In this document: positions 5,997-29,288 of the stretch, piece by piece
How the letters are laid out: the number at the start of each line of letters is the position of its first letter
How positions within the stretch are numbered: position 1 is the stretch's first letter
Assembly: GCA_023898425.1 (NCBI GenBank)
Contig: CP060222.1
Location: 1 to 32,000, forward strand
Origin: Candidatus Saccharimonadota bacterium
GTDB lineage: Bacteria; Patescibacteriota; Patescibacteriia; 2-12-FULL-60-25
Reading direction: 5' to 3'
DNA length: 32,000 bases
Position numbers and translations under genes: made by a program
The notes under the pieces: model-generated
Database searches by the model: none
What the model was told of the DNA's origin: nothing
The model's input: only the letters and a program-made list of their open reading frames with translations

Positions 5997-6440
5997 ATGG
6001 TCATTGATTTTGCCAGCCGGAGAGATCCAGCTGAAAACAGGCTCTCACTGTTGCGACGCTGGTTTGGTTCGTGCGAATCTGCGCATTACCTGCACAGCCG
6101 CGTACTCAGAGATGAGGATGGAAGTAACTACCTCATCGTTCACGTGACGCTAAAGTCACCACTTCACCAAGAGGTCGACTTTGTCGGCGATGACTGGAAG
6201 GATCTTTTCATCGCCAAAGAAATCCGCTTCGGATTTATCATGACTGATGCGGCCGTCATCGACTGTCGCCCGATTTGGGCGACGAAGCATCCCGATTATA
6301 TGGAGCTCGTCTGTCTCGTGAGAGATCAGACCAAGACCAACGGATCTGCAACATTCATCGCACCAAAGATGATGTTCTTGGCGGATGATAAGCATGCTAC
6401 TCACCAGGTGCCTGTCGTGGAGGATCATTCCCATGAATAG
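5997..6440 (+). CDS. Hypothetical protein (147 aa), translationally coupled to cobB-like sirtuin
   Basis: Intact ORF with strong SD. Its stop at 6438-6440 overlaps the ATG (6433) of the downstream sirtuin by 8 nt. GC-rich like its partner. Confidence 0.65.
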   Translation: MVIDFASRRDPAENRLSLLRRWFGSCESAHYLHSRVLRDEDGSNYLIVHVTLKSPLHQEVDFVGDDWKDLFIAKEIRFGFIMTDAAVIDCRPIWATKHPDYMELVCLVRDQTKTNGSATFIAPKMMFLADDKHATHQVPVVEDHSHE

Positions 6441-7197
6441 CACTGATATCGCGCGAGCACGTGATGCCATTTTGGCAGCGCGTGACGTTGTCTTTCTCAC
6501 CGGCGCCGGTATTTCGGCGGCGAGTGGTGTCCCGGTCTTTCGAGGCTCGGGCATCGTGTGGGAAGGCAAGCAAGCAACGGAGCTCGCAAACGCAAAGGCG
6601 TTTGCTGCAGATCCAATGCTCGTTTGGTCGTGGTATTTGCATCGTCGTCAGGTGGTTGCAAATGCTAGCCCAAATGCAGCACACCAAGCGATCACTGCTT
6701 GGCAGCCCTGCGAAGGCGCGATGAAGTGGTTATTGACGCAAAACGTCGATGACCTCCATGAACGCTCTGGTAGCAAAGACGTGACACATGTCCATGGCGA
6801 CCTTTGGTTCAATCGCTGCACCAAATGCGGCAAGCAACGCGAAGACCGGTCGCTCCATTTCGATGAAGTGCCTCGGTCACCTTGTTGCGACGAACTCGAG
6901 CGTCCTGCTATCATTTGGTTCGGAGAAACGATCTCTGAAAACGAATGGGGGATGATGAACTCCGCGGCAGGCTTTGCCGATGTCATCATCGTCATTGGTT
7001 CTAGCGGTGTTGTCACAACATCCGTTAGGTTCATTGAGCGTGCACGACGGGCAAAAGCCATCGCTAACAAGCTCAAAATGTTTCAGACTCAACGCGATCT
7101 GACCGTTATCAACGTAAATCTAGAAGACTCGTTGATTAACGCAGATATCGTTCTACGCGATAGAGCAGAAGTGATTCTGCCAGAGCTTCTTCAGTGA
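6433..7197 (+). CDS. cobB: NAD-dependent protein deacylase, CobB/Sir2 family
   Basis: FLTGAGISAASGVPVFRG, LLTQNVDDLHERSG, HVHGDLWFNRCTKC, RPAIIWFGE and VIGSSGVV form a canonical sirtuin motif set. Start chosen at MNSTDIA (6433), with GGAGGA 8 nt upstream. Confidence 0.9.
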   Translation: MNSTDIARARDAILAARDVVFLTGAGISAASGVPVFRGSGIVWEGKQATELANAKAFAADPMLVWSWYLHRRQVVANASPNAAHQAITAWQPCEGAMKWLLTQNVDDLHERSGSKDVTHVHGDLWFNRCTKCGKQREDRSLHFDEVPRSPCCDELERPAIIWFGETISENEWGMMNSAAGFADVIIVIGSSGVVTTSVRFIERARRAKAIANKLKMFQTQRDLTVINVNLEDSLINADIVLRDRAEVILPELLQ

Positions 7198-9721: not shown

Positions 9722-9901
9722 ACATTCAGTTGACCACGTCCCACGAATTCAGCACGAGCTGTTTGGCGAAAGGGACCTCTGGAGAACCACAGTCAAGAAC
9801 GTCTAAAAACGTTCACAACTCTCTCGGCCAAATAGGCCACGGATAGCCAAGACCACGGATCTCTCAGAGACCGAGCTTGGCCCCCGCCAAGCTCTTTTTT
9901 T
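9722..9901 (+). ncRNA. Candidate ~180-nt small RNA of unassigned class (or a terminated rRNA leader)
   Basis: Bounded by the promoter above and a strand-specific terminator. It is more GC-rich than its flanks and has local hairpins (gaacgt-ctaaaa-acgttc, ggcc-aaata-ggcc, cagc-acga-gctg) plus a direct repeat ccacggat x2. The only ORF is 37 codons, lacks an SD, and starts inside the promoter. Confidence 0.4.
9873..9901 (+). terminator. Strong intrinsic terminator, plus strand only
   Basis: 9-bp stem gagcttggc/gccaagctc, loop cccc, then T7. The opposite strand has no T-run. Confidence 0.8.
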
Positions 9902-10006
9902 CACCTCAAGGTTCGCGGTACGACGACCAGAGAACGTTGCCTGATCTTTCAGACGCCGTTCCTTGGCCGCCAGAAGCAATTCTCGACCAAGTGCAATTTT
10001 GACAAC

Positions 10007-10244
10007 AGAATATTGAAAAATGCATACAGGATCATTTTTATTCTCCAGAATAAAAAATAAGATCCAGTTAGAATTGTACGTAGAACATTCAACTGTTTTA
10101 TGTGCAAGGCATAACATTGCACTTGTAATTATAATCGTAACGAGTTAAATTTGATCGTTTAATCTGAAAAATATAATTGTGCATCCTCTGGACGCTTCTT
10201 CTCGCAAGAGAAGATGACGTGTACCAAGACTTCAACTTGGATAA
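10007..10244 (+). other. 23S precursor leader: 5' strand of an extended processing helix
   Basis: Complementary to 13293-13460. agaatattgaaaaatgc pairs with gcatttttcaatattct (17/17), gttagaattg with caattctaac, attcaactgttttatgtgcaaggca with tgccttgcacatacaacagctgaat (2 mismatches), and ataattgtgc with gcgcaattat. Confidence 0.75.
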
Positions 10245-13292
<3,048 letters not shown>

Positions 13293-13460
13293 CTAGGATG
13301 GAAGCGCAATTATTGTTAAACAATCAGAAATAAACCAGTGCGACCAATACATACATAAATGCAATGGGACTGCCTTGCACATACAACAGCTGAATCTCAT
13401 CATGATCTGATGAGCTTAAGCGATTCGATCGTCAATTCTAACAGCATTTTTCAATATTCT
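13293..13460 (+). other. 23S trailer: 3' strand of the processing helix
   Basis: Complement of 10007-10244 (see above). It has its own internal hairpin ctcatca-tgatc-tgatgag. Confidence 0.75.
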
Positions 13461-13516
13461 ATCGGCCCCAGCAATGTTTGGGCGACCGACATTTGAGGAC
13501 ATCCATGCCCTTAAAT

Positions 13517-13635
13517 GCCGGTGGCTCAAGCCAAGAGGTCACACCCGTTCCCATTTCGAACACGGAAGTTAAGCTCTTGAGCAGCGATGGTACTTGGACC
13601 CAACCCGGTCCTGGGAGAGTAGCCCGTTGCCGGAC
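13517..13635 (+). rRNA. rrf: 5S ribosomal RNA
   Basis: Aligns to the bacterial 5S consensus (CCCGTTCCCATTTCGAACACGGAAGTTAAGC ... GGGAGAGTAG). Helix I forms between 13518-13525 and 13626-13633. Confidence 0.9.
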
Positions 13636-13643
13636 CACACAGT

Positions 13644-13667
13644 AAACCCAGCGAAAGCTGGGTTTTT
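13644..13667 (+). terminator. rRNA operon terminator
   Basis: cccagc-gaaa-gctggg followed by T5. Confidence 0.8.
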
Positions 13668-13737
13668 GTATTGTTTGCATTCTTTCTTTATATTGCTAGG
13701 ATGCGAATGTTTTGTACATTTACCGGAGATTGCTGAG

Positions 13738-14556
13738 ATGAGTGAAAAAGCCGCTAAGAATGAGCTGAAAAATAAGTATCCGCTCAATAGCGAGATCTTT
13801 CAACTATTCTCGAAGTGCATTAACGCATTTCTATTGCCATCAAATTCAGTCTTTAAAAGGGCGTTTGATGCTAACGAGTCTGACGTGCTTGATATCGTGA
13901 GTGTTAAAGAACGCTTCTCTCAAATGTCTAAGTCTGAAGATTTTGCAGAGCGTTTTATTTTTGCTGCGCATGCAAAGCAAAAAATGAATACTGCACCTCA
14001 TCCCGCTCTAAAAAACTTTGGTAGTGCCTGTCTTTATGGTGCTAGGAATAGAAATTGGGATCCAAACTCTTTAGTAATTGGTCCTGCTTGGTTTGGTGAT
14101 GATACGATCTTGCGTGTTTCGGTAAAAATTATCGGACCAACGCTTATTGATGATCGTGTTCATTTGAAAACGGCTGCAGCAATTACCAGATCGATTATTG
14201 GTCCAGAGACCAAAGTTGAAGAAGGCACCACGATAAAAGACGCTGTCATCGGTGGAGAGGTGTTTATAGGCTCTGGAGCGCGTCTCACGAGCTTTTCTGA
14301 AGATGACCCATGGCTTGGTGCACGGGTAATGACGGTGTGGAATGATAACCCTCGTTATAGGGGCACGTTCGATACAGGGCGCTTACGCTTAGGCCCTGTG
14401 ATTGGAGATAGGTGTCGCATTGGTGCGAATGCCGTTCTAAAGCCCGGTGTAGTTTTGTATCCTGACTGCGTAGTTCCGGCAGGTGCTCATTTGCCGGCTG
14501 GGATTTATCCTGATTGTGACTCAATCAACGATGCCCTTGCGGCGAAAAAATACTGA
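13738..14556 (+). CDS. Hexapeptide-repeat (left-handed beta-helix) transferase-like protein
   Basis: Track ORF 13594-14556 overlaps the 5S gene, so it is trimmed to the ATG at 13738 (MSEKAAKNEL), with GGAG upstream. The C-terminal half shows imperfect hexapeptide periodicity (IGPETKVEEGTTIKDAVIGGEVFIGSGARL ... IGDRCRIGANAVLKPGVVLYPDCVVPAGAHL). Confidence 0.65.
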   Translation: MSEKAAKNELKNKYPLNSEIFQLFSKCINAFLLPSNSVFKRAFDANESDVLDIVSVKERFSQMSKSEDFAERFIFAAHAKQKMNTAPHPALKNFGSACLYGARNRNWDPNSLVIGPAWFGDDTILRVSVKIIGPTLIDDRVHLKTAAAITRSIIGPETKVEEGTTIKDAVIGGEVFIGSGARLTSFSEDDPWLGARVMTVWNDNPRYRGTFDTGRLRLGPVIGDRCRIGANAVLKPGVVLYPDCVVPAGAHLPAGIYPDCDSINDALAAKKY

Positions 14557-16094: not shown

Positions 16095-16814
16095 ATGAAA
16101 CATGCTTTTATAGCATTTATTGTACTTTTTGGTCTTAGTCCAGCGCTTTTTGTATACGCTCAATCAGGATCAAGTGCTCAGTACAAGAGTTTTGATATGG
16201 GGACGGTACCTGCCACGGTAGAGGCTTCTTCGCCGGGCTATATTTTAAATGGGTCGGTAGAGGCAATTGTTGGCGAAGGACTGACCAGCACAAATTATCA
16301 AGGCGGAGCAGGATCGCCCGTTCCTCAAGAACCAGATGTCGTTGTACCTCCGGTGCCTACACCAACATCAGGCGGAGGGGGCGGTTCTGGTGGTTTGGGT
16401 GATAAACGAGCACCTACGTTGCGACATCGTATTTGGACGTATTTACCGGTAGGCGTTATTAACGGTGAGCGTGGAGAAGCGGGCGGAATCGTTTTTTTAA
16501 ACGATTCTACAGTAGGTATTGAATATATAGGCGCTTTACAATGGCAGAAATCTGCTCATCCTCTAGGTTTAGGAAACAATCTACTCTCCGCTCGTTCGCA
16601 ATACGGTCAGCAATATTCAGAAAGAACAGAGTCCATTATGCGACGCAGGTTAGTAGGTGATGTAAACGATAGTCAATATGTTGATGATATTGATCTATCA
16701 CTCTTTTCACGTGCTTGGGGCAAACCAATCCCTGAAGCTGACTTTAACGAAGACGGCAAGGTGGATGATCTTGATCTTTCGCTCTTAGCTAGTCATTGGC
16801 ATCAACGTTTCTAA
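16095..16814 (+). CDS. Secreted protein with C-terminal dockerin-like module
   Basis: Signal peptide MKHAFIAFIVLFGLSPALFVYAQ, then a Gly/Pro linker. The C-terminal duplicated Ca-binding segments GDVNDSQYVDDIDLSLF and DFNEDGKVDDLDLSLL (16650-16799) fit the type I dockerin pattern DxNxDGxxDxxD. Confidence 0.7.
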   Translation: MKHAFIAFIVLFGLSPALFVYAQSGSSAQYKSFDMGTVPATVEASSPGYILNGSVEAIVGEGLTSTNYQGGAGSPVPQEPDVVVPPVPTPTSGGGGGSGGLGDKRAPTLRHRIWTYLPVGVINGERGEAGGIVFLNDSTVGIEYIGALQWQKSAHPLGLGNNLLSARSQYGQQYSERTESIMRRRLVGDVNDSQYVDDIDLSLFSRAWGKPIPEADFNEDGKVDDLDLSLLASHWHQRF

Positions 16815-16826
16815 TATCTTTACACT

Positions 16827-18071
16827 ATGAAAATTGCTCTTTCTCGCCTTCTTTTAGGCTTAATGCCAGCGTTTATCGTTGGGCTGTTTGCTACTCAGGT
16901 TCATGCGGCAACGGTTTCTATACAGGCCCCTACTGAAGTAACGCTTGGTCAAACATTTCAGGTGAATTATGTTGTCCAAGGTGCGCAAGCCGTTGATACG
17001 GTACGATTAAATGGTACCTATAGCGCCAACTTACTTGAGTTAAAAACGTTGTCTTTGTCCAAGGCGCTTGATAACCGCTCACCATCTACTGGGTTTAATC
17101 AACAAAATGGCACCTATTCTTTTGGGGCTTTTACTGTCGCTGAGCCTGCTAATGGCGCAACGAATGCAGGTGTCTTTACCTTTACGGCAAAAGAATTGGG
17201 TACGGCCACAGTTGCGCTTCAAGGAGATTCTTTAGTTCTCGCCGCTGGGGTAAACCAACTGGTAGGTGTCGCGAGTGCACAAATTCGTATCGTTGCCCCT
17301 AAAAAAGACGATATCGTAAGAGTGCCGCCTAGTAGTGTAGCCACGACGACAGATTTTTTTGTGGCAAGCGCATCTCATCCAGATGAAGATCAATGGTACA
17401 CGAATCGTGAGGTAGATATTACCTGGGATATTTTAGGAAAAGGGCTCACTTCAGTTTTTATAGCATTTGACGATCAGCCAGAGGGACCAGCTACAGAAAA
17501 AGTAGAGAATAAAGGCGAGAAACGTTTTATAGCGCCAAAAGATGGAGTTTGGTATGCGCACATTATCGCTACTTTTAACGACGGAAGAAGACTTAGACGT
17601 GACTATCGTTTACAAATAGATACGGTTGCGCCAAAGCCTTTTGCATTAAGTGCAGATTTTGAACAAATTGACCCTAACGTATCAAATTATCTACGATTCG
17701 CCGCCCTTGATGAGACGTCAGGAATCAGTCTTTATCGCATTTACGATGGTGATAAACTTGTAACAACCACCACAGAGCCTTTCTTTTCTCTAAGTGGTCT
17801 TACGGGCAATCGTGAGTTTACGGTAGAAGCCATGGATCTTGCTGGAAATGTCACAAAAAACTCTACGAAAGTAAGGCTGGGCGCAATGCTTACTAAAGAG
17901 GAAAAGACAAATGTGTGGTGGACTCTTCTTTTTGGGATGTTGCTTGTTATGCTGACAGGATTTATTGTTGGTATTTTGCTCATGAAGCGAAGAAAAGAAG
18001 AAGAAAAAGCAGATGTGAAAAGAACATCTTTATCCACAAGGCGACGCAAAAAGAAAAGCGTTACGAAATAA
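16827..18071 (+). CDS. Membrane-anchored cohesin-like domain protein
   Basis: Signal peptide, then a cohesin-like beta-sandwich (ATVSIQAPTEVTLGQTFQVNYVVQGAQAVDTVRLNGTYSANLLELKTL...GVFTFTAKELGTATVAL, about 16905-17295), then a second domain (HPDEDQWYTN..DGVWYAHIIA..IDTVAPKP). A C-terminal TM (WWTLLFGMLLVMLTGFIVGILLM) is followed by a Lys/Arg tail. Confidence 0.7.
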   Translation: MKIALSRLLLGLMPAFIVGLFATQVHAATVSIQAPTEVTLGQTFQVNYVVQGAQAVDTVRLNGTYSANLLELKTLSLSKALDNRSPSTGFNQQNGTYSFGAFTVAEPANGATNAGVFTFTAKELGTATVALQGDSLVLAAGVNQLVGVASAQIRIVAPKKDDIVRVPPSSVATTTDFFVASASHPDEDQWYTNREVDITWDILGKGLTSVFIAFDDQPEGPATEKVENKGEKRFIAPKDGVWYAHIIATFNDGRRLRRDYRLQIDTVAPKPFALSADFEQIDPNVSNYLRFAALDETSGISLYRIYDGDKLVTTTTEPFFSLSGLTGNREFTVEAMDLAGNVTKNSTKVRLGAMLTKEEKTNVWWTLLFGMLLVMLTGFIVGILLMKRRKEEEKADVKRTSLSTRRRKKKSVTK

Positions 18072-18079
18072 AGAAAAAA

Positions 18080-18088
18080 TGCTATAAT
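18080..18088 (+). promoter_or_regulatory. Possible extended -10 promoter (TGcTATAAT) for the giant gene
   Basis: tgctataat at 18080-18088 with no clear -35. It overlaps the upstream gene's terminator region. Confidence 0.35.
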
Positions 18089-18089
18089 T

Positions 18090-18115
18090 GAAACGTCCAA
18101 TAGGACGTTTCTTTT
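18090..18115 (+). terminator. Hairpin terminator after the cohesin gene
   Basis: gaaacgtcc-aata-ggacgtttc followed by T4. Confidence 0.6.
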
Positions 18116-18141
18116 ACATGTTCGGTAGTACTTTGGTAAAA

Positions 18142-21100
18142 ATGAAAATCCGCAAAGCATTTGCGGTGCTTTTAGTGTTTTTACAGGTTATTTTTAATGC
18201 TTTATCGCTATCTGTAGCAGCTGCTCCTCAAGTCGTTAGAGCGGCTGCACCTGCTACCGTCGGTTTTCACGGTCGTCTTCAGAATTCGAGCGGTACAAAT
18301 ATTAACGGAAGTCGATCTATCGAGTTTCGTTTGTACGCTAATAGTGTAGGCGGCGCAGCTCTTTGGTCAGAAACTCAGGTTCTTACAATCGACGAAGGGT
18401 TTTTTAGTGCAAATTTGGGATCAGTGACCTCGTTTCCTGCTACTTTGGATTTCAACCAACCTCTTTTCTTAAGTATTGAAGTCAACGGTGACGGTGAAAT
18501 GACGCCACGCGTAACGATGAACAGTGTTCCTTATGCGTATACTGCAGGCGGTGTAAATAGTTACGCAAATCAGCCAAGCGGAACTGGTGGCAGAATGTAC
18601 TATAATTCTGCAAGCGGTACGTTAAACTATTACGACGAAACCTTAAGCGAATGGAAGACTTTGGGCACCGCAACAACAGCAACATTTCAAGATATCACAA
18701 ATGCTGGCGCGAATACCACAAATGCTTTGCAATTTGCAGGTGGCACATCAACAGCTGGTTTAAATGTGCAAGGCGCGTTAACAGCAACGAGTGTTTCAAC
18801 GACTAATGTTACTAGCACCAATGCCTTCTTTACCTCGCTCGTATCGAGTGCGGCTTCATCAACGAGTTTCTTTTCTTCAACGGTATGGGGTACAAGTGCC
18901 TCTTTCACAAATCTTTCTGTTGGTGGTCAAAATGTTTGTCTCGCTAATGGCACCAACTGTCTTGCATCAAACGAGGTAGACAGTCTTCTTTCTGTTACAA
19001 ATCGTGGTTCGGTGGCTACGGCAACGCTCACGCTCCTTGGTGGTGCTATCGCCAATACATTGAACGTAACCGACACTGCTACCATCGCTAATGCTGTCGT
19101 TACCAGTACTCTTATGGTGTCTGGCACGGTGTCTACAAATCTCACGCCAACGACAGATCTTATTTATTCGCTAGGTACACCATCCCTTCGTTGGAATGGT
19201 AATTTTGGTGATGTTATTATCGCTAATGCTACGGCAACCTCTCTTGTTTGGACCAATGCCACCGGTACCAATACCACTTCAACCAATCTCTTTGCCACGA
19301 ATCTCACCGGTACGAATGGTTCATTTGTGAACTTCTTGGCAACCAATGCCACAACAACCAACAGCACAAGCACGAACTTCTTTGCCACGAACCTTGTCGG
19401 TGCCAATGCGACATTCACAAGTCTCTCTGTCCTTACGCCTTCGTCTTTTACAGATATTATTTGGACAAATGCCACAGGTGTTAATACGACCTCAACGAAT
19501 TTCTATACCACTAATGGCACCATGGGTTCTTTGATTGCAAACTCAGGCAATATCACCGACCTCCTTAGTACCAATGCCACTTTCACCAGTGTCACCACAA
19601 CCAATCTTTTTGCAACGCTCGTTTCGTCAACGCAAATTCTTGTGAATGGTTTTGAGGTTTGTACAAGTAATGGTACGAATTGTCCTTCTGCTGGTGCTGA
19701 ATCCGATACCCTTGCGACGGTTACCGGCCGAGGCGCTACCACCACATCAGCAGTGACCTTCTTGGGCGGTGTTACCACCACAAACCTAAATGCAACCAGT
19801 GCTCTCATCGATGATCTTGTAAGTACGAACGCCACCGTGACGGCCTTTGCGGTTCTTGGTGAAGTGAATTCAAACTTTATTCCAACAACTGATCTTGCTT
19901 ATACGCTTGGTAACAATACCAATCGCTGGAATGGGTATTTTGGTGATGTCACAAGTACTAATTTCTTCTCTTCGCTTATCGTTGGTACTAACGGTTCTTT
20001 TACGAATCTTCTTGGTACAAACGCTACTTTTACGAATGCTACAGCGACTACATTTAGTACTCAAACCTTTACGGCAACCAATGCTGGCATCACAAATGCT
20101 ACGGTGACAAACCTCATTTTTACCAATGCAACAGGTGATACGCTTGCCTTGTCTTCTTTGAGTACACAAAGTGTTTCGACAACCGACCTCCTTGCAACGA
20201 ATGCAACGCTTACCAATGCCATCATCGCAAACTCCACGACGACGAATGGCTTTATCGAAAATCTCATCGGTACCAATGTCACGAGCACCAATCTCTTTAC
20301 GGATGCTCTCACAGCTAATTCAGCAACCATTCTTTCTTTGACAGCTGGAAATATTACCGTCACAAGTACGGCGACCATTGCAAATCTTGTTGCAACAAGC
20401 TCAACACTTACGAATGTATTGATTGGCTCTAGTACGACAACGAATGCCACAACCACCAATGGTTTTGTTTCACAATTTGTGGCGACAAATGCAACGAGTA
20501 CGGATCTCTTCTCAGTGAATGTGATCGGTACCAATGCGACCTTCACGAATCTTAACGCTGCCTCTGGTCTCATCAATGACCTCACCGTTGTCTCGCTCAC
20601 CGCAGGTACAACAACCGTGACTAACCTCATTGCAACCAATGGCACCACCACCAACAGTACAAGCACGAATCTCTTTGCAACGAACTCTGTCTTTAGCGGC
20701 GCAACCTCAACGAATGCCTTCTTTACGAATATTGTTGGTACGAACGCGACCTTCACGAGTCTTTCCGTTCTTTCGCCATCAACGCTATCAAATCTTACTT
20801 GGACCAATGCAACAGGTACCAATACGACTTCAACGAATCTCTTTGCTTCGTCACTTTGGGGTACGTCCGCAAGTCTCACAACGGCACTGATCAATACCGC
20901 AACGATTACTGACTTGATCGCAACCAATGGGACAACGACCAACAGTACAAGTACAAATCTCTTTGCAACGAATTTGTGGGGAACAACGGTTTCAGGCACG
21001 ACAGCGACTTTTGGTGTGGTTTCTGCAGCAAGTGGTACGATCACAGCTCTTTCAGGAATAGATCTTGCTTATACAAACGCACTCTTCACAAACTCCACTT

Positions 21101-24100
21101 CAACAAATACGACGAGTACGAATGCCTTTGCAACAAACCTCAATGCAACGAATGGTATTTTTACAAACTCAACCTCAACCAATACCACCAGTACCAATGC
21201 CTTCTTTACCTCGCTCGTATCGAGTGCGGCTTCATCAACAAGCTTCTTCTCTTCAACGGTATGGGGCACAAGTGCATCCTTCACAAATCTTCTCGTCGCC
21301 GGTCAAAGTGTCTGTCTTGCTGACGGCACCAACTGTCTTGCCGTCACGGAATCAGATACCCTTCTCTCCGTTACCAACCGTGGCTCAGTTGCCACAGCAA
21401 CCCTCACCCTTCTTGGTGGTGCTATCGCCAATACATTGAATGTGACGAATACCGCAACGATTGCTAATGCTGTCGTTACCAGTACTCTTATGGTGTCTGG
21501 CACGGTATCTACAAATCTCACGCCAACGACAGACCTTATTTATTCGCTGGGTACGCCATCCCTTCGTTGGAATGGTAACTTTGGTGATGTTATTTGGATG
21601 AATGCAACTGGCACCAATACCACTTCGACAAACCTCTTTGCGACTAATTTTGTTGCTACAAGCGGTCAGATCACAGACGCTCTCTTGACTAACGCTACGG
21701 CAACCAATCTTTTTGCAACGAATGCGACCTTAACAAACCTAACGGTAAATAATTTAACCTTGGCCAACCCGCTCAATCTTTCGTCATTACTTTGGACAAA
21801 TGCAACAGGTGTTAACACCACCTCAACAAACTTCTTTGCTGACACAGCATCTTCTACTGACCTCTTCTTTACAAATGCCACGGGTGGGTCATTGGTGGTT
21901 AATTCGCTTAGCTCAAATACAGGGATCTTTAGCGCCATCCTTGGTACCAATGCAACGTTTACCGCTGCTACAACAACCAATCTCTTTGCCACAGCTGTTT
22001 CAACAACGGCACTCTTTGTGAATGGTCAAACGGTTTGTTTAACAGATGGAACAAATTGTACCTATCCTGGTGAGGCAGATACCTTGGCTAGCGTAACAGC
22101 GAGAGGAGCAACAACATCGGTTGCTGTTACCTTCTTTGGTGGTGTGACGTCCAGCAATTTGAACGTTACCGGTACAATCGGTGGTCAGTATGTGAATGCA
22201 TCGTCTGTTTCTATTCTTAATGGATTTAGTGCTGCAACAGGTACAATCGGTGGTCTTATTTGGACTAATGCTACTGGCACGAATACCACCTCCACGAATC
22301 TCTTTTCAAATAATCTTGTCGCGAACTCAGCGACCTTTACTCAGGCTACAGCGACAGCACTCTTTACCCCAACATTTACTGCAACGAATGCAGGTATCTC
22401 GAGCTCAACGATTACTACGTTGCAGTTTGCAAACGCTACCGGTGTAAATCTCTTTACCTCAACCGTTTGGGGAACAAGTGCATCGTTTACGACGCTTACC
22501 GTTGCAGGTCAAAATGTGTGTTTGCTTGATGGAACAAATTGCCCACTTTCAAATGAGGCGGATACTTTGGCAACCGTAACGGCGCGTGGTGGAACAACGA
22601 CTGCTCCTGTTACCTTCTTTGGTGGTGTGACATCGAGTAACTTAAATGTGACCAATACGGCAAATATCGCGTATTTAAATGCATCCTCGGTATCTGTTCT
22701 TAATGGCTTTAGCGCTGCTACGGCGACGATTGGAGGACTTATTTGGACGAATGCTACGGGGGTAAATACAACAACAACGAACCTCTTTGCGAATAACTTT
22801 AGAGCACAGGCATCAACATTGTTTGCGCTGACAGCAGGCACGGTAACCGTTACGTCCTCTGCATCTATTGTAAGTCTCTCAGGTACTGGCTATACATTTA
22901 CCAACGGGACCACAACCAATTCAACAAGTACCAGTGCTTTTGTTACAAATCTTGTTGGTACCAATGCTACGCTCACAACCTTGTCATTGGTTAATCCAAT
23001 TACGGTAACAGGTATTAGCTGGGTAAATGCGACAGGTACAAATACCACTTCGACAAATCTTGCTACGACAAACCTTACGGGTACGTCGGCAACAATCACG
23101 CGAACTACATCGACAAATAGTTTTGCCACAACGGCATCATCAACAAACAACTTCTTTACTACGGGTCAAGGTAGCTCATTGTCATTAAATGTCTTAACGG
23201 CGACTACGGGCACGATTACGAATCTTCTCTCGACATCGAGCACAATCAGTAATCTATTTGTTAATACCCTAGCGGGTACGAGCGCAACGTTCTCAAGTCT
23301 TCTTGTCGGAGGTCAAAATGTCTGTTTAACAAATGGTACAAATTGTCCGCTTTCAACTGAAATCGATACGTTATTGAGCGTTACAAATCGTGGGGCGAGC
23401 GCAACAGCAACGCTCACCTTGCTTGGTGGTGCCGTTGGTAGCTTTGTGAGTGCAACGTCTTTCTTGGGTGCTTCGGGTACAGCGATCTTTAATGGTAATA
23501 CGACTATTGGTGATGCAACGTCTGATCTATTGTCTGTAACGGCAAGAATTAATACTGATCTTGTACCGTCTACTGATCTTGTACGTTCTTTGGGATCAGC
23601 AACACTTCGTTGGAATGCCTTCTTTGGCAGTGTGACAACAACAGGTCTCGTTTGGACCAATGCAACAGGAACATCGGTAACAACAACCAATATCTTCTCG
23701 TCGATTGCGTCATTTAGCTCTCTTGTAGCGACAAATGCCACAATGACTTCGGTAACAACGACAAATATTGCTACGACCAATATCATTGGTACAAATGCGA
23801 CATTTACAAACCTCACTGCAGGAAATATCAACCTACAACCAAGTCCTGCTGTTGCAGAGGTGAGTTGGACAAACTCTGGCCTCTCATCAACAGGTATAGA
23901 ATCTGTGCGAGCGATGCAGTCTTTCAATGGTTACCTCTATGCTGGTCAAGGTGATAGCGCGGGTGATGGTGACATTAAGATTTGTGATCCTTCTGTAGCG
24001 GGTAATGCGCTCGTCTGTGATAGCGCTTCGGACTGGTCGACATCTCTTGATAATGCCACGGTTAATTCTATCGGTGCCTTTGCTGTTTATAAAAATCATT

Positions 24101-26325
24101 TTTATGCCGGTGATTCAGGAGATACTTTCTTTGAGGGTATTATCAGAGTCTGTACACCAGGCACTACGGGTAATACGCAAAAATGTGATTCGGGAGACTG
24201 GGCGGTATCAACAACAACTGGCATGGATCGTATTACACAGTTAATTGTTTACGAAGATACGCTATATGCTTCAGGTGATACGGGATTCCAAGGGGTAGAA
24301 TCTACTTATTACTGTAGTCCTGAACTCACCGGAGCAGCAGATATTTGTGATGCAAGTGATTGGACGAGAGTTGTGCCATTTGCGGGTACCTATGAGCTTA
24401 TTAACGGTCTTGTGATCTATAACAATAGACTTGTTGCCCTTATGGGGCAATCAAACGGTGACTACGATCTTCTCACCTGTGATCCTGCTTTGTCTGGCAA
24501 TCAAAGGATTTGTGATAGCACAACTGATTGGGTGCGTACCATTAATAATGGTGCCGGTAGAGATTCTTATGTCTCGGCAGCAGTGTTAAATAGCTATCTT
24601 TATCTAGGTACAGGCAATGATCCTGGCGAGGGTGATCTTCAGCGTTGTGACTCCCGTTATAAGCCTGATGCGTTACTTTGTGACGGTACCGCTGAAATCG
24701 GCACAACGTTTGATCCGGGAGCTTCTATCACGCGTATTCCAGCCATGATCAATTATGGTGGTAGCTTGTGGTTTGGTACCGAAGGTTCGGCAGGTGACGG
24801 TGATATTTATCAATTTGAATCTTCGGTAGCATCAACCTCGCATGACACGGCGTCGTTGCAGGCTACGTATTCTTTTGCGACGTATAACGGTTATCTCTAT
24901 GCTGGTCGTGGTAACTCAGCGGGTAATGGTCAGGTTTGGTTATACCAACGCCCTAAGCTTAGCTCTAGCCGCATCACCTTTAATACAGGTACTTCTACCG
25001 GTTCATTATGGTTTGAAGAAGAAGATCAGAGCTCGACAGGTGCAGGTCAAGATGCAAGTTCTACGATTGGTGTCTTTAAACTTTCACATAGTCTTGTTGC
25101 AGAAGCTGGTGCCTACGATTTAGCCGAAATGTATCCAACCTCAGAAGATGGTCTTGAAGCGGGTGATGTTGTTGCTATCGATACCAATAACCCAGGAAAA
25201 ATCAGAAAGACGAAGGATGCGTATGATAAAAATACGATCGGTATCGTTTCAACACGTCCTGGATTTGTTCTCTCTGGTCAGCAGGCAGAGAATGCTGTTC
25301 CGGTTGCCCTTGCTGGTCGTGTGCCGGTTAAAGTAACGGCAGAAGGTGGTTCTATTCAGGCGGGTGATGCTCTTGCACCATCATCAATACCTGGTTATGC
25401 CATGAAGGCCACACAACAGGGGACAATTGTGGGTCGCTCGCTTGAATCTTATGCATTTGGCTCTACCAGTACAGAAGAAACAGCAACGGTCGTGGCTTTT
25501 GTGCAAACCGCTTATCACTTTGGACCTACCGAGTCAGTGATTGCCGAAGAAATTGCGCTGTTAAATAATGATGATGCGCCAGAAGGTGATAACGTTGCTG
25601 AAATAATTCAGCCTGCAAATTCTGCACCAGAGATTAGCTTGCCACTCGGTTCGCAAATCGCTCAAGGTATCGGTGTTCAAACACTCGTGGTAGAAGAGCT
25701 CGCCGTACGTGGAATGATCATCATTGAGGGTGATACACGTATTCGTGGCTCCTTGTATCTCGGATCGTCTTTGTCTGGTACTGCTGTCATTGAGGCTAAT
25801 ACTGATCGAGTTACGGTAACCTTTAAGCAGCCGATGGCGTCGATTCCTCGCGTACAAGTAACAGCGAGACTTGAAAAAGCGAATAGTAGTGAATCATTTG
25901 ATAATGATGTTTGGGATGGAACCTATTACATCGCCAATATTACCGAAGAAGGCTTTGAGATTCGTTTACCGGGACTTGGATTATGTAAGTATTATGACCC
26001 ATGTCCAGCCGTATTATCGATGGATTGGTTCGCCTACTTCCAAGAACCAGAAATTGAAGAACCGATTCTTGTCTCATCGAGTAGTACAACGGATGTCGAG
26101 ACGCCGGCGCCAGAAGATTCAGTAGAAGTTGATAGTGAAAGCGGCACCTCTACCACAACACAAGAAGAGATTATTGAAGATGTTGTGATTCCGGAAGAAA
26201 TCCCAGTAGAAGAGGTGGTGGATACACCGCCCGAGGTCGTAGAGCCTGTAGACGAAGTCACCATACCTGTTGTAGAGGAGGTTGTGACGAGTGAGCCTGC
26301 GGAGATACCGGTGATTGGAGAGTAA
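18142..26325 (+). CDS. Giant (~2730 aa) secreted Thr/Asn-rich fibre protein with beta-propeller, phage-appendage-like and acidic C-terminal regions
   Basis: Single uninterrupted ORF. The track start at 18088 is a TTG; the ATG at 18142 gives MKIRKAFAVLLVFLQVIFNALSLSVAAAP (signal peptide), and an alternative ATG lies at 18118. Architecture by eye: an N-terminal globular domain; about 1700 aa of repeats (about a dozen (W/F)xNATG-type motifs, roughly nine of them the full WTNATG(T/V)NTTSTNLFA form; six G(Q)xVCxxxGTNC knots; four P(T/S)TDLxxxLGxxxxRWN motifs); seven propeller-like blades; a DLAEMYP...VPVALAGRVPVKV module; a beta-sandwich; and a Glu/Val/Pro tail. Confidence 0.85.
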   Translation: MKIRKAFAVLLVFLQVIFNALSLSVAAAPQVVRAAAPATVGFHGRLQNSSGTNINGSRSIEFRLYANSVGGAALWSETQVLTIDEGFFSANLGSVTSFPATLDFNQPLFLSIEVNGDGEMTPRVTMNSVPYAYTAGGVNSYANQPSGTGGRMYYNSASGTLNYYDETLSEWKTLGTATTATFQDITNAGANTTNALQFAGGTSTAGLNVQGALTATSVSTTNVTSTNAFFTSLVSSAASSTSFFSSTVWGTSASFTNLSVGGQNVCLANGTNCLASNEVDSLLSVTNRGSVATATLTLLGGAIANTLNVTDTATIANAVVTSTLMVSGTVSTNLTPTTDLIYSLGTPSLRWNGNFGDVIIANATATSLVWTNATGTNTTSTNLFATNLTGTNGSFVNFLATNATTTNSTSTNFFATNLVGANATFTSLSVLTPSSFTDIIWTNATGVNTTSTNFYTTNGTMGSLIANSGNITDLLSTNATFTSVTTTNLFATLVSSTQILVNGFEVCTSNGTNCPSAGAESDTLATVTGRGATTTSAVTFLGGVTTTNLNATSALIDDLVSTNATVTAFAVLGEVNSNFIPTTDLAYTLGNNTNRWNGYFGDVTSTNFFSSLIVGTNGSFTNLLGTNATFTNATATTFSTQTFTATNAGITNATVTNLIFTNATGDTLALSSLSTQSVSTTDLLATNATLTNAIIANSTTTNGFIENLIGTNVTSTNLFTDALTANSATILSLTAGNITVTSTATIANLVATSSTLTNVLIGSSTTTNATTTNGFVSQFVATNATSTDLFSVNVIGTNATFTNLNAASGLINDLTVVSLTAGTTTVTNLIATNGTTTNSTSTNLFATNSVFSGATSTNAFFTNIVGTNATFTSLSVLSPSTLSNLTWTNATGTNTTSTNLFASSLWGTSASLTTALINTATITDLIATNGTTTNSTSTNLFATNLWGTTVSGTTATFGVVSAASGTITALSGIDLAYTNALFTNSTSTNTTSTNAFATNLNATNGIFTNSTSTNTTSTNAFFTSLVSSAASSTSFFSSTVWGTSASFTNLLVAGQSVCLADGTNCLAVTESDTLLSVTNRGSVATATLTLLGGAIANTLNVTNTATIANAVVTSTLMVSGTVSTNLTPTTDLIYSLGTPSLRWNGNFGDVIWMNATGTNTTSTNLFATNFVATSGQITDALLTNATATNLFATNATLTNLTVNNLTLANPLNLSSLLWTNATGVNTTSTNFFADTASSTDLFFTNATGGSLVVNSLSSNTGIFSAILGTNATFTAATTTNLFATAVSTTALFVNGQTVCLTDGTNCTYPGEADTLASVTARGATTSVAVTFFGGVTSSNLNVTGTIGGQYVNASSVSILNGFSAATGTIGGLIWTNATGTNTTSTNLFSNNLVANSATFTQATATALFTPTFTATNAGISSSTITTLQFANATGVNLFTSTVWGTSASFTTLTVAGQNVCLLDGTNCPLSNEADTLATVTARGGTTTAPVTFFGGVTSSNLNVTNTANIAYLNASSVSVLNGFSAATATIGGLIWTNATGVNTTTTNLFANNFRAQASTLFALTAGTVTVTSSASIVSLSGTGYTFTNGTTTNSTSTSAFVTNLVGTNATLTTLSLVNPITVTGISWVNATGTNTTSTNLATTNLTGTSATITRTTSTNSFATTASSTNNFFTTGQGSSLSLNVLTATTGTITNLLSTSSTISNLFVNTLAGTSATFSSLLVGGQNVCLTNGTNCPLSTEIDTLLSVTNRGASATATLTLLGGAVGSFVSATSFLGASGTAIFNGNTTIGDATSDLLSVTARINTDLVPSTDLVRSLGSATLRWNAFFGSVTTTGLVWTNATGTSVTTTNIFSSIASFSSLVATNATMTSVTTTNIATTNIIGTNATFTNLTAGNINLQPSPAVAEVSWTNSGLSSTGIESVRAMQSFNGYLYAGQGDSAGDGDIKICDPSVAGNALVCDSASDWSTSLDNATVNSIGAFAVYKNHFYAGDSGDTFFEGIIRVCTPGTTGNTQKCDSGDWAVSTTTGMDRITQLIVYEDTLYASGDTGFQGVESTYYCSPELTGAADICDASDWTRVVPFAGTYELINGLVIYNNRLVALMGQSNGDYDLLTCDPALSGNQRICDSTTDWVRTINNGAGRDSYVSAAVLNSYLYLGTGNDPGEGDLQRCDSRYKPDALLCDGTAEIGTTFDPGASITRIPAMINYGGSLWFGTEGSAGDGDIYQFESSVASTSHDTASLQATYSFATYNGYLYAGRGNSAGNGQVWLYQRPKLSSSRITFNTGTSTGSLWFEEEDQSSTGAGQDASSTIGVFKLSHSLVAEAGAYDLAEMYPTSEDGLEAGDVVAIDTNNPGKIRKTKDAYDKNTIGIVSTRPGFVLSGQQAENAVPVALAGRVPVKVTAEGGSIQAGDALAPSSIPGYAMKATQQGTIVGRSLESYAFGSTSTEETATVVAFVQTAYHFGPTESVIAEEIALLNNDDAPEGDNVAEIIQPANSAPEISLPLGSQIAQGIGVQTLVVEELAVRGMIIIEGDTRIRGSLYLGSSLSGTAVIEANTDRVTVTFKQPMASIPRVQVTARLEKANSSESFDNDVWDGTYYIANITEEGFEIRLPGLGLCKYYDPCPAVLSMDWFAYFQEPEIEEPILVSSSSTTDVETPAPEDSVEVDSESGTSTTTQEEIIEDVVIPEEIPVEEVVDTPPEVVEPVDEVTIPVVEEVVTSEPAEIPVIGE
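18820..19218 (+). repeat. Copy A of a ~400-bp intragenic direct repeat
   Basis: Aligns along its full length with 21196-21594 at an in-frame offset of 2376 bp. Runs of over 40 identical bases alternate with diverged patches. Confidence 0.9.
21196..21594 (+). repeat. Copy B of the ~400-bp intragenic direct repeat
   Basis: See copy A. The encoded peptide NAFFTSLVSSAASSTSFFSSTVWGTSASFTNL...TDLIYSLGTPSLRWNGNFGDVI is nearly identical in both copies. Confidence 0.9.
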
Positions 26326-27233: not shown

Positions 27234-27262
27234 TTGACAAAAGGCCTTTTTTGTGCTATTAT
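27234..27262 (+). promoter_or_regulatory. Consensus promoter of the SpoIID-domain gene
   Basis: TTGACA (27234-27239), a 17-nt spacer, then TATTAT (27257-27262). The track's TTG start at 27234 is the -35 box itself. Confidence 0.6.
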
Positions 27263-27275
27263 AAGACTAATCGTT

Positions 27276-29288
27276 ATGTCATTTCGCTCCTTTCTTTCAA
27301 CGAATTATCGATCAAAGCGCTCGCTTGCATTTGTATTGCTTGGAGCGCTTTTTGTATCGTTGATGCCAATGGTGCCTTCTGTTGCTTGGACGCGTTCTGA
27401 TTACGCATCAAGCCTTATTGTGGTGCATGCGCCATCGATCATGAACCCTGGCAAAGAAGCTGAGGTTGAGATGGTATTAAAAAACACTGGATCTGCCCCA
27501 TGGTATAAAACGGGCACAAATTTTGTCTCTCTTTATCATTATGACGGTGTCAAAAAGCTAGAGGTCCCAAGTGCTTTTGGTCCAGCGGGTTGGGATGCGA
27601 GTGAACGTCCAGCAAAACTACCGGTAGATCGTGTTAATCCTGGAGAAACAGTCACAATCCGTTTTCCTCTTATCGCACCAGCAAGAACGGGTACCTATGA
27701 TCTTGATTTTCTTCTTGTCGCAGAAAACTTGATCCGTATGGGGGGAGGACGCGCGAAATTTTCAATCAATGTCACGGGTGATCCTGTAGCTACTTCGGTA
27801 CTACCATCTTCGCCAACACAGGCGAGTGCTTTTGCTCCAAAGCCACAGCAAATCGTTGTACCAGAGCAACCATCGGATGCATCGTATGCGGGTTTTCTCA
27901 TGTTGCGTTCTGATGCTGAGATGGTTGTAAGTGGTAATGGTCGTAAGCAATTTTCGTTCGGATTTAAAAATAATGGTACGGCTACCTGGAGTTCACGCTC
28001 CGTTAAGGTGAGCGGTATTCAGCCAGCGCTCGGTGACCGCTTGGGCTCGGTGCGTGATGACTCCTGGTTGGATGCTTCAACGCCTATCAGTCTTACGGGG
28101 ATTACAAATCCAGGTGAGTTAGCTTTTGTTACTTTTAGCTTGCAAGGTCCAGCAAAGGCAGGTGTCTATACTGCGCGTTTTCAACTCTACGCAGACAATA
28201 AACAGGTAGAAGGAGCTTTTGTAGAAATTCCTATCACCGTAACAGCCGATGGGTATATTGAGCCTGAGACAATAAAGCCCGTTGTAACACCAGCGCAAAC
28301 CCCTGCGCCAACGCCAGCACCTACACCAGTGGCGGCTCCACCAACAACACCGATCTCAAGCTTTGTATTAAATCCAAAACCGCTTAACGGTGATAGCTCG
28401 ACGTTACCTGATCAGCCATTGATTCGTGTCGGTTTATTAAATCCAGAAGACTATGCGATGACGGTTAAAGCAAGTCACGTGCCATTACAGGTATTGAACA
28501 ATGGTGCACTCGTTTGTACCGTGCCGATGAACGAAGAGATCGAAGTTTCTTATAGCAAGGTTACAAGTAAGTATTCTTTAAGTGGTTCAACGTGTGGCAA
28601 TGTCTCATCGAGTGCTTGGTATGTTGTTCGTGCAAATGACGGGATTTCACCAATCACCCTCACAGATTATGTACGTCCAGTGAGTTGGTTGCCTGGCGCC
28701 AATGACAATACCTTTAGAGCGCAGCTTGAACTTCGTTACGCTTCTAAACCAGATGAAATTTGGGTTATTAACGAGCTACCGATTGAATCCTATCTAAAAG
28801 GTATTGCAGAAACATCTAATGTAAGTCCGGCTCAGTATCAGCGCGCATTATTAACCGGCGCTCGTACCTATGCTATGTATCACGTGAATCGTGGTACCAA
28901 GCACGCATCACAAAACTTTATTGTTGATGCAACCTATGACCAGGTCTATCGTGGCTATGGTCAAGAAGCAAGAACACCTACAATTAGCGCAGCCGTTGAT
29001 GCAACACGCGGACAAATCGTGACCTATAAAGGCAAGCTTGCTATCACGCCTTATTTCTCACGCTCTGATGGACGTACGCGTAACTACGAAGATGTATGGG
29101 GAGGTCAGCCTATCGATTGGCTCAAAGCCGTAAATGCTCCGGGTGATGAAGGCAAAACACTTTGGGGTCACGGTGTTGGTCTTTCAGCATCAAGTGCGCT
29201 CTATATGGATGCGACACTAGGTAAAAACTACGAACAAATCTTAAAGCAATTCTATACAGGGATTGAGCTAATGAAGGCTTATAAATAA
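27276..29288 (+). CDS. SpoIID/LytB-domain peptidoglycan-remodelling protein with N-terminal tandem Ig-like (NBR1/CARDB-like) domains
   Basis: ATG at 27276 (MSFRSFLSTNY..., TM anchor). Two similar N-terminal domains (EVEMVLKNTGSAPWYKTG... and FSFGFKNNGTATWSSRS...) are followed by a Pro/Thr linker. The C-terminus YLKGIAETSNVSPAQYQRALLTGARTYAMYH..DQVYRGYG..AVDATRGQIVTY..PYFSRSDGRTRN..WGHGVGLSASSAL..QILKQFYTGIEL matches the SpoIID pattern. Confidence 0.8.
   Translation: MSFRSFLSTNYRSKRSLAFVLLGALFVSLMPMVPSVAWTRSDYASSLIVVHAPSIMNPGKEAEVEMVLKNTGSAPWYKTGTNFVSLYHYDGVKKLEVPSAFGPAGWDASERPAKLPVDRVNPGETVTIRFPLIAPARTGTYDLDFLLVAENLIRMGGGRAKFSINVTGDPVATSVLPSSPTQASAFAPKPQQIVVPEQPSDASYAGFLMLRSDAEMVVSGNGRKQFSFGFKNNGTATWSSRSVKVSGIQPALGDRLGSVRDDSWLDASTPISLTGITNPGELAFVTFSLQGPAKAGVYTARFQLYADNKQVEGAFVEIPITVTADGYIEPETIKPVVTPAQTPAPTPAPTPVAAPPTTPISSFVLNPKPLNGDSSTLPDQPLIRVGLLNPEDYAMTVKASHVPLQVLNNGALVCTVPMNEEIEVSYSKVTSKYSLSGSTCGNVSSSAWYVVRANDGISPITLTDYVRPVSWLPGANDNTFRAQLELRYASKPDEIWVINELPIESYLKGIAETSNVSPAQYQRALLTGARTYAMYHVNRGTKHASQNFIVDATYDQVYRGYGQEARTPTISAAVDATRGQIVTYKGKLAITPYFSRSDGRTRNYEDVWGGQPIDWLKAVNAPGDEGKTLWGHGVGLSASSALYMDATLGKNYEQILKQFYTGIELMKAYK

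Follow-up and report, generated by a model that had tools for sequence, protein, structure and literature searches.

The window analysed here is a 32,000-nucleotide (nt) stretch of DNA, positions 1 to 32,000 of contig CP060222.1, and the subject of the analysis is a cassette of three consecutive genes on its plus strand, encoding a dockerin protein (the adaptor), a membrane-anchored cohesin protein (the stalk) and a very large secreted protein (the giant). The cassette, probably a surface tether, is conserved in Parcubacteria-group Patescibacteria, and it occurs in at least two candidate phyla, Magasanikbacteria and Uhrbacteria. The proteins of the window are identical to the entries USN52479.1, USN52480.1 and USN52482.1 of a Candidatus Magasanikbacteria bacterium (Patescibacteria, Parcubacteria group), the first two of which carry no other public annotation than 'hypothetical protein'. 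A preliminary description, made from the letters of the window, had proposed three consecutive same-strand genes at this place in a small-genome bacterium; the three open reading frames (ORFs) were found as described (Table 1) and the genome of the Candidatus Magasanikbacteria record measures ~1.03 Mb.

Table 1. Coordinates of the cassette, its domains and the gene that follows it (aa, amino acids; pLDDT, predicted local distance difference test)
Feature	Position	Strand	Basis or remark
Adaptor gene, 239 aa, USN52479.1	16095..16814	+	Signal peptide, PamT-like head, Gly/Pro linker, Ig-like (immunoglobulin-like) domain, dockerin
PamT-like head, aa 23-75	16161..16319	+	Three S-S/T-x-N/G-F/Y motifs ~19 aa apart (motif alignment)
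Ig-like beta-sandwich, aa 106-184	16410..16646	+	AlphaFold pLDDT 94-97; X-module position
Dockerin module, aa 185-239, two F-hand Ca-binding repeats	16647..16811	+	Pfam, PDB profile, Foldseek
Stalk gene, 414 aa, USN52480.1	16827..18071	+	12 nt downstream of adaptor gene
Cohesin domain, aa 28-156	16908..17294	+	Foldseek to solved cohesins; Pfam Cohesin in orthologues
Two further beta-sandwiches (aa 176-264; FN3/Big-like aa 274-351)	17352..17879	+	AlphaFold model
C-terminal transmembrane helix (~aa 364-386) and cytoplasmic Lys/Arg tail (aa 387-414)	17916..18068	+	Hydropathy, sequence
Extended -10 element TGCTATAAT (18080-18088), then 9-bp-stem hairpin (18090-18111) and TTTT	18080..18111	+	Sequence
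Giant fibre gene, about 2,735 aa from ATG 18118 (listed ORF 18088-26325, 2745 aa from TTG 18088)	18118..26325	+	No whole-length Pfam/NCBIfam match
N-terminal module (N-module), aa 55-235 (ORF numbering)	18250..18792	+	50-58% identity in related loci
Fibre shaft, Thr/Asn/Ser/Ala-rich repeats, ~1,700 residues	18793..23898	+	Composition; six C-x6-C pairs; recent internal duplications
Kelch-type beta-propeller, seven ~52-aa repeats, aa 1938-2290	23899..24957	+	Repeat map; five blades with C-x10-C
Peptidase_G2-IMC-like (intramolecular-chaperone-like) domain, aa 2341-2477, motif DLAEMYP...GDVV...GIVST.PG	25108..25518	+	phrog_22593 E 9.5e-8
H-type-lectin-like beta domain (aa 2575-2649) and acidic Glu/Val/Pro-rich tail	25810..26322	+	Pfam, composition
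LytR_C-domain membrane-anchored protein USN52482.1	26369..27163	+	Pfam LytR_C E 1e-10; frequent fourth gene

The three genes of the cassette

The adaptor had been described as a secreted protein ending in a duplicated dockerin module, and this assignment was upheld. Residues 188-232 were matched by Pfam Dockerin_1 (PF00404) with 34 bits, against a gathering (GA) cut-off of 22.9. Both calcium-binding loops are canonical at positions 1, 3, 5, 9 and 12 (D189/N191/S193/D197/D200 and D216/N218/D220/D224/D227); their acidic positions are almost invariant in an alignment of 31 adaptor family sequences, and in the AlphaFold model each loop is followed by a helix (residues 198-207 and 225-233). Comparison of the family profile with the PDB retrieved dockerins of C. 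thermocellum (1daq, 4fl4 and 2mte, at E values of about 2e-4), and the dockerin was superposed by Foldseek on 2y3n_B with a TM-score of 0.81, a root-mean-square deviation (r.m.s.d.) of 2.2 Å and 30% identity. Among family members the dockerin hardly varies and forms, together with the preceding Ig-like domain, the most conserved portion of the adaptor. The two were modelled as a unit in which the Ig-like sandwich passes into the dockerin without a linker (pLDDT 94-97 over residues 101-239).

The most informative feature of the adaptor was missed in the preliminary description. At its N-terminus lies a head resembling PamT, which recurs beside related giants on other anchors. The NCBIfam model CPR_pilus_PamT (NF058579; CPR, Candidate Phyla Radiation) matched residues 6-83 of the window adaptor over profile positions 8-86 of 241, with E = 0.007 and 15.8 bits (equivalog cut-off 240); across the adaptor family it matched 24/31 members, the best at E = 9.5e-6. 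The N-terminal part (residues 27-100) is conserved in sequence, yet it was given a pLDDT of only 33-44 when folded alone. According to the model, the head is intrinsically unstructured by itself, as expected of a segment that folds on a partner; being conserved but unstructured alone, it needs some partner.

The stalk belongs to a tight family of 400-415-residue proteins. Its AlphaFold model (mean pLDDT 82.4) contains three β-domains, comprising residues 28-156, 176-264 and 274-351, followed by a long helix of residues 357-411. The first domain, modelled with a pLDDT of about 83-95, is a nine-strand jelly-roll β-sandwich that superposes on the solved cohesins 2vo8 (TM-score 0.80), 2jh2 (0.79), 5nrm (0.77) and 2vn5 (0.75), with r.m.s.d. 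values of 2.4-2.9 Å. The top Foldseek match to the stalk was 2w1n, a double module of cohesin and FN3 from GH84C of Clostridium perfringens (E = 9e-10), and the third domain was classed as FnIII/Big-like by PDB entry 1k85 (E = 4e-5, or 9e-6 with the family profile). Pfam Cohesin was detected in six of the 15 full-length orthologues (E < 0.1, at about residues 34-144), three of which lie at or above the cut-off of 24.1 bits, at 33.8, 28.8 and 24.4 bits. Together, the orthologue matches to this hidden Markov model (HMM) and the predicted fold support the cohesin assignment, and the claim of an N-terminal cohesin stood for the fold and for the family, while the window copy itself returned no Pfam match.

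The C-terminal membrane anchor and Lys/Arg tail claimed for the stalk were recovered in its sequence: residues 367-385 are strongly hydrophobic (Kyte-Doolittle 2.7), 14 of the 29 residues of the tail are Lys or Arg, and R388 and R389 are invariant in the family. No LPXTG motif was found in the protein. Because of the transmembrane helix, the basic tail, the three-domain model and the cohesin fold, the stalk is assigned as a cytoplasmic-membrane protein that has its C-terminal helix as anchor and its cohesin at the distal end.

Between the stalk and the giant, both a hairpin and a candidate extended -10 promoter had been reported, and both elements are present. The element TGCTATAAT was left unflagged by a sigma-70 scan because it has no good -35. 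An element of the form TGnTAnnnT was found in eight of 13 related intergenic regions, with a strong hairpin directly behind it in only four. A conserved 5'-terminal mRNA stem-loop, considered for this region, was only partly borne out, the hairpin being strong in 4/8 loci with the -10 element. The hairpin at 18090-18111 may be the terminator of the upstream gene pair or part of the giant leader, and transcription of the giant probably starts at a promoter of its own. Among relatives the gap between adaptor and stalk is 1-12 nt everywhere and that between stalk and giant 16-592 nt.

For the giant, ATG 18118 is the most likely true start, since this ATG is retained in the closest relative, which lacks the later one. 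The protein carries a Sec-type signal peptide, and no transmembrane segment, LPXTG motif, wall-sorting signal or other anchor was found in its sequence. Searches with Pfam and NCBIfam, over the whole length and by segment, gave nothing above threshold; a single-sequence PDB search with the C-terminal third returned noise only, and a PHROGs search of the giant returned one family of unknown function and a weak tail-fibre match. The best-conserved part is the N-module, for which the identity across related loci exceeds that of the cohesin protein (~37%) and of the dockerin protein (~40%). Its first ~110 residues were found in 23,637 representative protein clusters at E ≤ 1e-3, in 6,474 at E ≤ 1e-10 and in 33 at E ≤ 1e-30, nearly always directly after the signal peptide. 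The N-module was matched by no Pfam or NCBIfam model and, with more than 23,000 clusters, is among the largest families without such a model met in this analysis. It gave no match in 50,697 phage records.

The preliminary description of the giant as a fibre tipped with a propeller was correct as to the parts, a Thr/Asn/Ser-rich fibre and a seven-repeat Kelch-type propeller, and not as to their order, since about 450 residues of further domains follow the propeller. The propeller assignment is supported by the family profile, which matched designed Kelch propellers with E values from 1.3e-11 (7onh) to 4e-6. The Peptidase_G2 and H-type lectin domains that had also been named fared less well. Pfam PF11962 (Peptidase_G2) did not match the giant directly, and the assignment is transitive only: residues 2341-2459 share 32% identity with segments of P0095 and P0097 that PF11962 matches at 39.3 and 32.4 bits, respectively (cut-off 25). 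H_lectin (PF09458) remained below its GA cut-off of 24, with 18.2 bits (E = 0.0028) when the segment was searched and 16.4 bits for an 834-residue query, and was sub-threshold across the giant homologues too.

Two observations were made on the DNA of the giant gene. Long direct repeats lie at 18802-19101 and 21178-21477, and at 22024-22175 and 22507-22658, and are mirrored by near-identical protein segments at about residues 240-370 and 1030-1160; this points to fibre modules that were recently duplicated or recombined within the gene. The GC skew falls to between -0.19 and -0.22 in the gene (window 19000-22000) and is positive in the remainder of the window, which probably reflects the codon composition of the Thr/Asn/Ser-rich repeats and not a replication signal.

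Conservation of the cassette and recurrence of the head

Related loci were gathered from the stalk protein, from the adaptor protein and by ORF classification with home-built HMMs. In the first set, all 13 distinct loci had the adaptor gene first, then the stalk gene and then the N-module giant. In the metagenome set, the stalk gene was next to the adaptor gene for all ten full-length adaptor matches, and the giant followed in all nine cases with enough contig. The result was the same whether the cohesin protein or the dockerin protein was taken as the starting point, and in total the three-gene order is kept in every assessable locus, at least 20 loci of Magasanikbacteria and Uhrbacteria. The genes beside the cassette vary from locus to locus (a flippase, an ABC transporter, enolase/SIMPL and others); because the order is constant while the flanks differ, the three genes are a conserved unit. 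Recurrence of the synteny in related genomes had been proposed as a check of the cassette, and the genes co-occurred in every relative in which this could be assessed.

The named records come from Candidatus Uhrbacteria, 'Patescibacteria group' and Candidatus Magasanikbacteria. The adaptor family comprises 40 proteins, and its named members all belong to Patescibacteria, except for one partial match labelled Verrucomicrobiae. Two cassette contigs (L017 and L018) were deposited within metagenome-assembled genomes of 'uncultured Gammaproteobacteria' and are probably mis-binned, because all other occurrences are in Patescibacteria.

Variation is concentrated in the giant, the length of which ranges from ~1,570 to more than 3,280 residues among relatives, with shuffled distal domains. 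The Uhrbacteria orthologue of locus L001 has Peptidase_S74 domains and no propeller. The distal part of the giant varies freely between strains, and socket, plug and fibre base are constant. As a separate observation, loci L001 (11317-16422) and L002 (4628-6848) encode identical adaptor and stalk proteins and different giants, one of 1,701 residues and the other split or shortened into ORFs of 307 and 525 residues; this suggests either that the fibre gene varies at strain level or that it collapsed in assembly. A further variant was seen in L036/L037 (5258-10520), where an extra cohesin-like protein of 388 residues comes first and is followed by a 301-residue Ig-dockerin protein without the PamT-like head, the usual 413-residue stalk and then the N-module giant.

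Five further giants (L019-L023) were reached independently, through their C-terminal domains. In L021, a 406-residue protein with a Cohesin match lies immediately upstream of the N-module giant. In L020 (2844-5900), the protein encoded directly upstream of giant P0095 has 1,018 residues and consists of a PamT-like head (PamT model, E = 3.4e-8; adaptor HMM, E = 1.5e-5), FN3 repeats and a C-terminal membrane region, and P0095 itself has the N-module, an LVIVD propeller and Peptidase_G2. The L020 protein is the counterpart of adaptor and stalk fused in one chain, a Rosetta-stone equivalent. The loci L022 (1077-6178, minus strand) and L023 (1663-6858, minus strand) each contain five consecutive paralogous genes for proteins of ~290-366 residues, divergent from the N-module giant. 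The array gene nearest the giant encodes the head (PamT model, E = 1.2e-12 and 7.2e-9, respectively); the other array genes were matched by no NCBIfam model, and one gave a weak WxLIP_PGBD match. These arrays may be another CPR surface-filament system.

The PamT-like head was thus found next to N-module giants on three other protein bodies. PamT is the predicted tip protein of the CPR Pam pilus; a 'tail fibre-like protein' is listed as a core neighbour of the pam operons that contain it (bioRxiv 10.64898/2026.03.03.709456). The recurrence of the head by N-module giants on other bodies and the tail fibre-like neighbour of that preprint suggest that head and fibre belong together, whatever lies behind the head being an interchangeable anchor.

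Flanking genes and other features of the window

Upstream of the cassette lie 23S and 5S rRNA genes, a gene for a hexapeptide-repeat protein and an opposite-strand gene for a Wzx-type flippase. The last two had been named as upstream neighbours in the preliminary description, which was accurate as to their presence. The hexapeptide-repeat ORF (13594-14556, plus strand) begins with a TTG that overlaps the 5S rRNA, and its true start is therefore further downstream. The 23S-5S pair (10251-13635) includes a complete 23S rRNA of 3,038 nt, compared with a model of 2,925 nt (~110 nt extra), and no 16S gene lies upstream of it, the gene there encoding a SPOUT methyltransferase on the opposite strand. 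For this reason an unlinked 16S / 23S-5S arrangement is suggested, together with a possible 23S insertion. Small ORFs at 9803-11937 (minus strand) are not genes and fall mostly within the 23S rRNA gene. Further away, two SIR2-family genes stand ~1.2 kb apart (4452-5192, minus strand, and 6385-7197, plus strand), in the vicinity of a DM13-domain protein gene (1508-2155) and a tRNA-Leu gene (2198-2284).

Downstream, the cassette is followed by the gene of the LytR_C-domain membrane protein, which adjoins the giant in the window and in L001, L017, L019 and L021, and faintly in L022. It is followed by a gene for a 684-residue SpoIID/LytB-domain protein (27234-29288) with N-terminal Ig-like domains of N_BRCA1_IG/CARDB type, another envelope-remodelling gene adjoining the cassette. 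The statement that no glycoside hydrolase lies nearby was confirmed, in that no glycoside hydrolase, other carbohydrate-active enzyme (CAZyme) or carbohydrate-binding module (CBM) domain was found by Pfam and NCBIfam in the scanned genes of the window. No phage genes were found in the window.

Proposed arrangement, rival explanations and significance

The preliminary description had read the cassette as a minimal surface-display or tethering system and as the most plausible host- or substrate-contact machinery in the window, a reading that was supported in part. The proposed arrangement is a tether and a fibre: a cohesin stalk that holds a dockerin adaptor, the head of which holds the giant. 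The stalk is anchored by its transmembrane helix, and its two further β-sandwich domains carry the cohesin away from the membrane. The dockerin would plug, in a calcium-dependent manner as in known pairs, into the cohesin encoded 12 nt downstream, so that the adaptor is held on the cell by an envelope-spanning stalk. With less confidence, the unstructured three-motif head may fold onto the N-module of the anchorless giant and so mount the fibre on the cell; the variable shaft, the Kelch propeller and the lectin-like C-terminal domains would then point outwards and bind the surface of a host, prey or substrate. Folding or auto-processing would be the task of the G2- or S74-type domains, by analogy with phage tail spikes. 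That three head motifs might meet a presumed trimeric fibre with one motif per protomer is speculation. Coupling of stalk, plug and fibre is supported by the strict gene order, by the 1-12 nt gap between adaptor and stalk and by the lack of an anchor on the giant. The full arrangement is given a probability of roughly 0.55, and the cohesin-dockerin tether taken by itself is considered likely.

Several findings weigh against this arrangement. Pfam Cohesin (PF00963) did not match the window copy of the stalk at E ≤ 1. For the Ig-like domain of the adaptor, Foldseek returned generic Ig-like folds only, with no specific similarity to known X-modules, and the proposal of a recognisable XDoc dyad for the Ig-dockerin unit found no support in that search. 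The contact of head and N-module is argued from gene adjacency in about four independent contexts, among which L022 and L023 are mutually related, and the N-module giant of L019 has no detectable head-bearing neighbour. More than 23,000 clusters contain the N-module, and since most of them surely lack the cassette, it needs no dockerin adaptor in general. The fibre could also be oriented in reverse, so that its lectin-like or acidic C-terminus sits on the wall of the cell itself.

The main live rival is that the genes are functionally independent neighbours: the pair would display the small adaptor alone, for example for wall or glycan binding, and the giant would be an independent adhesin, secreted or otherwise retained, the three being neighbours through surface-gene clustering and co-regulation. 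Such independence would suit the candidate promoter of the giant and the larger intergenic gap before it, the multitude of N-modules that do without the cassette, the headless neighbourhood of the L019 giant and the L036/L037 variant, in which the adaptor lacks the head and the giant is present all the same. It accounts poorly for a three-gene order that is strict in at least 20 loci while the flanks change, for the recurrence of the head by N-module giants on three other protein bodies, for a giant devoid of any anchor of its own and for a head that is conserved but unstructured alone and so requires a partner; it is judged unlikely, though worth keeping in view. The same head invites a different explanation, a reduced CPR Pam pilus, in which the adaptor and the 414-residue protein would serve, respectively, as a PamT-type tip pilin and as a PamC/D- or PamR-like membrane-anchored chaperone or anchor, with assembly by donor-strand exchange, the 'cohesin' being just one more Ig-like fold. 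The PamT model does match most of the adaptor family, PamC, PamD and PamR likewise have C-terminal transmembrane helices and tandem β-domains, and a tail fibre-like gene neighbours the pam operons. Against this, the PamT match is limited to the first ~80 residues and to 15.8 bits against a cut-off of 240, the cohesin and dockerin assignments have HMM and fold evidence of their own, no member of the 414-residue family matched any Pam model at E ≤ 1, and the cassette genes, searched with NCBIfam, include neither PamA/B-like pilins nor PapD-like PamC/PamD chaperones. On the last two grounds identity with the Pam pilus was rejected as improbable.

Still less probable is an origin of the giant as a phage tail fibre, the locus being a prophage remnant or phage-derived cargo. 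The resemblance of its C-terminal domain to tail-spike intramolecular-chaperone domains (Peptidase_G2-like here, Peptidase_S74 in L001) and the weak tail-fibre PHROG matches would be explained, but the window is free of phage genes and the flanks are 23S/5S rRNA, flippase, LytR_C and SpoIID; all three proteins have Sec-type signal peptides, and the chromosomal synteny is kept across candidate phyla. A prophage was rejected because the context is chromosomal, the proteins carry signal peptides and the 50,697 phage records contain no match to the N-module. A minimal cellulosome-like enzyme display system, to which cohesin and dockerin as the defining cellulosome modules might point, is held to be just as far-fetched: there is a single cohesin, the sole dockerin protein of the locus has no catalytic domain, and the scanned genes of the window contain neither a CBM-bearing scaffoldin nor a glycoside hydrolase or CAZyme domain. 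The cellulosome was rejected on the single cohesin and on the missing CBM and enzyme in those genes.

Among the closest known systems is the CttA-ScaE pair of Ruminococcus flavefaciens, a cell-surface adhesion complex in which an XMod-dockerin is bound to a cohesin (PMC4266597). As there, one cell-anchored cohesin is predicted to hold one non-enzymatic dockerin protein; the cohesin protein is anchored at its C-terminus, and in the models the dockerin is C-terminal with an Ig-like module directly before it, so that the load would come from the N-terminal side. Unlike ScaE, which has a sortase motif, the stalk is anchored by a transmembrane helix and a Lys/Arg tail. Unlike CttA, which has cellulose-binding modules, the adaptor has a short PamT-like head as its N-terminal cargo and an Ig-like domain without detectable homology to X-modules. 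The setting also differs, in that the genome is of roughly 1 Mb, belongs to Patescibacteria and is without a cellulosome, as far as the scanned genes of the window show. The best structural matches to the cohesin, including the cohesin-FN3 tandem, are the non-cellulosomal proteins of C. perfringens (2w1n, 2vo8 and 2jh2), whose glycoside hydrolase pairs likewise use cohesin and dockerin outside cellulose degradation. The C. perfringens pairs join large secreted toxins or enzymes to one another, whereas here both partners are without a catalytic domain and one is anchored in the membrane.

With the Pam pilus of Candidatus Mycosynbacter amalyticus the cassette shares the PamT-like N-terminal head, the CPR lineage and a tail fibre-like gene in the neighbourhood, and the accessory proteins of that pilus are anchored in the membrane by C-terminal helices, as is the stalk. 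It lacks the PamA/B pilins and the PapD-like chaperones, the likeness to PamT is confined to ~80 residues far under the family cut-off, and a predicted cohesin-dockerin plug stands in place of donor-strand exchange. With phage tail spikes and fibres (Peptidase_G2, phi29 gp12; Peptidase_S74, endosialidase) the giant shares a long repetitive fibre and a G2-IMC-like domain near the C-terminus, and one orthologue has S74. It differs from them in its Sec signal peptide, in being chromosomal and cellular and in an N-module that is absent from sequenced phages, and the window giant falls under the Pfam thresholds for Peptidase_G2 and Peptidase_S74. No description of a CPR cohesin-dockerin-fibre cassette was found in the literature, in agreement with the earlier statement that no characterised system with this combination was known; the only related mention is of SEML1_0315, an essential dockerin-domain envelope protein of Southlakia epibionticum.

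How Patescibacteria (CPR) find and hold their hosts is a central open question, and besides type IV pili and the Pam pilus few CPR surface structures have been assigned to genes. The locus, from a lineage that is largely uncultured, is a concrete candidate for a three-part device with a socket in the membrane, an adaptor as the plug and a giant fibre, the two small proteins of which are still annotated as hypothetical. Anchoring of an adhesin by cohesin and dockerin is a known principle. What is new here is its use in minimal-genome Patescibacteria, together with a stalk anchored by a transmembrane helix, a head that resembles PamT and a giant fibre that is obligatory. With function inferred, cohesin-dockerin biology is extended to non-cellulosomal adhesin mounting in minimal-genome bacteria, and the PamT-like head links the giant 'tail-fibre-like' proteins of CPR bacteria to the Pam pilus. 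If the contact between head and fibre is true, it would provide a rule predicting which giants are mounted on the cell, and how.

A broader and tentative reading, for which the odds are clearly lower than for the tether-and-fibre arrangement at this locus, is that the head is a general CPR fibre-docking peptide, whose three motifs may fold onto the N-module of (probably trimeric) adhesins of tail-fibre-like type and whose anchor has been swapped in evolution. The swapped anchors might be the Pam pilus tip, the Ig-dockerin seated in a membrane cohesin at the present locus and the fused FN3-membrane stalk of L020. If this holds, the cohesin-dockerin plug and socket would enable a cell of ultra-small size to mount long fibres for host recognition and to exchange them, and a role would be assigned to thousands of unannotated N-module giants.

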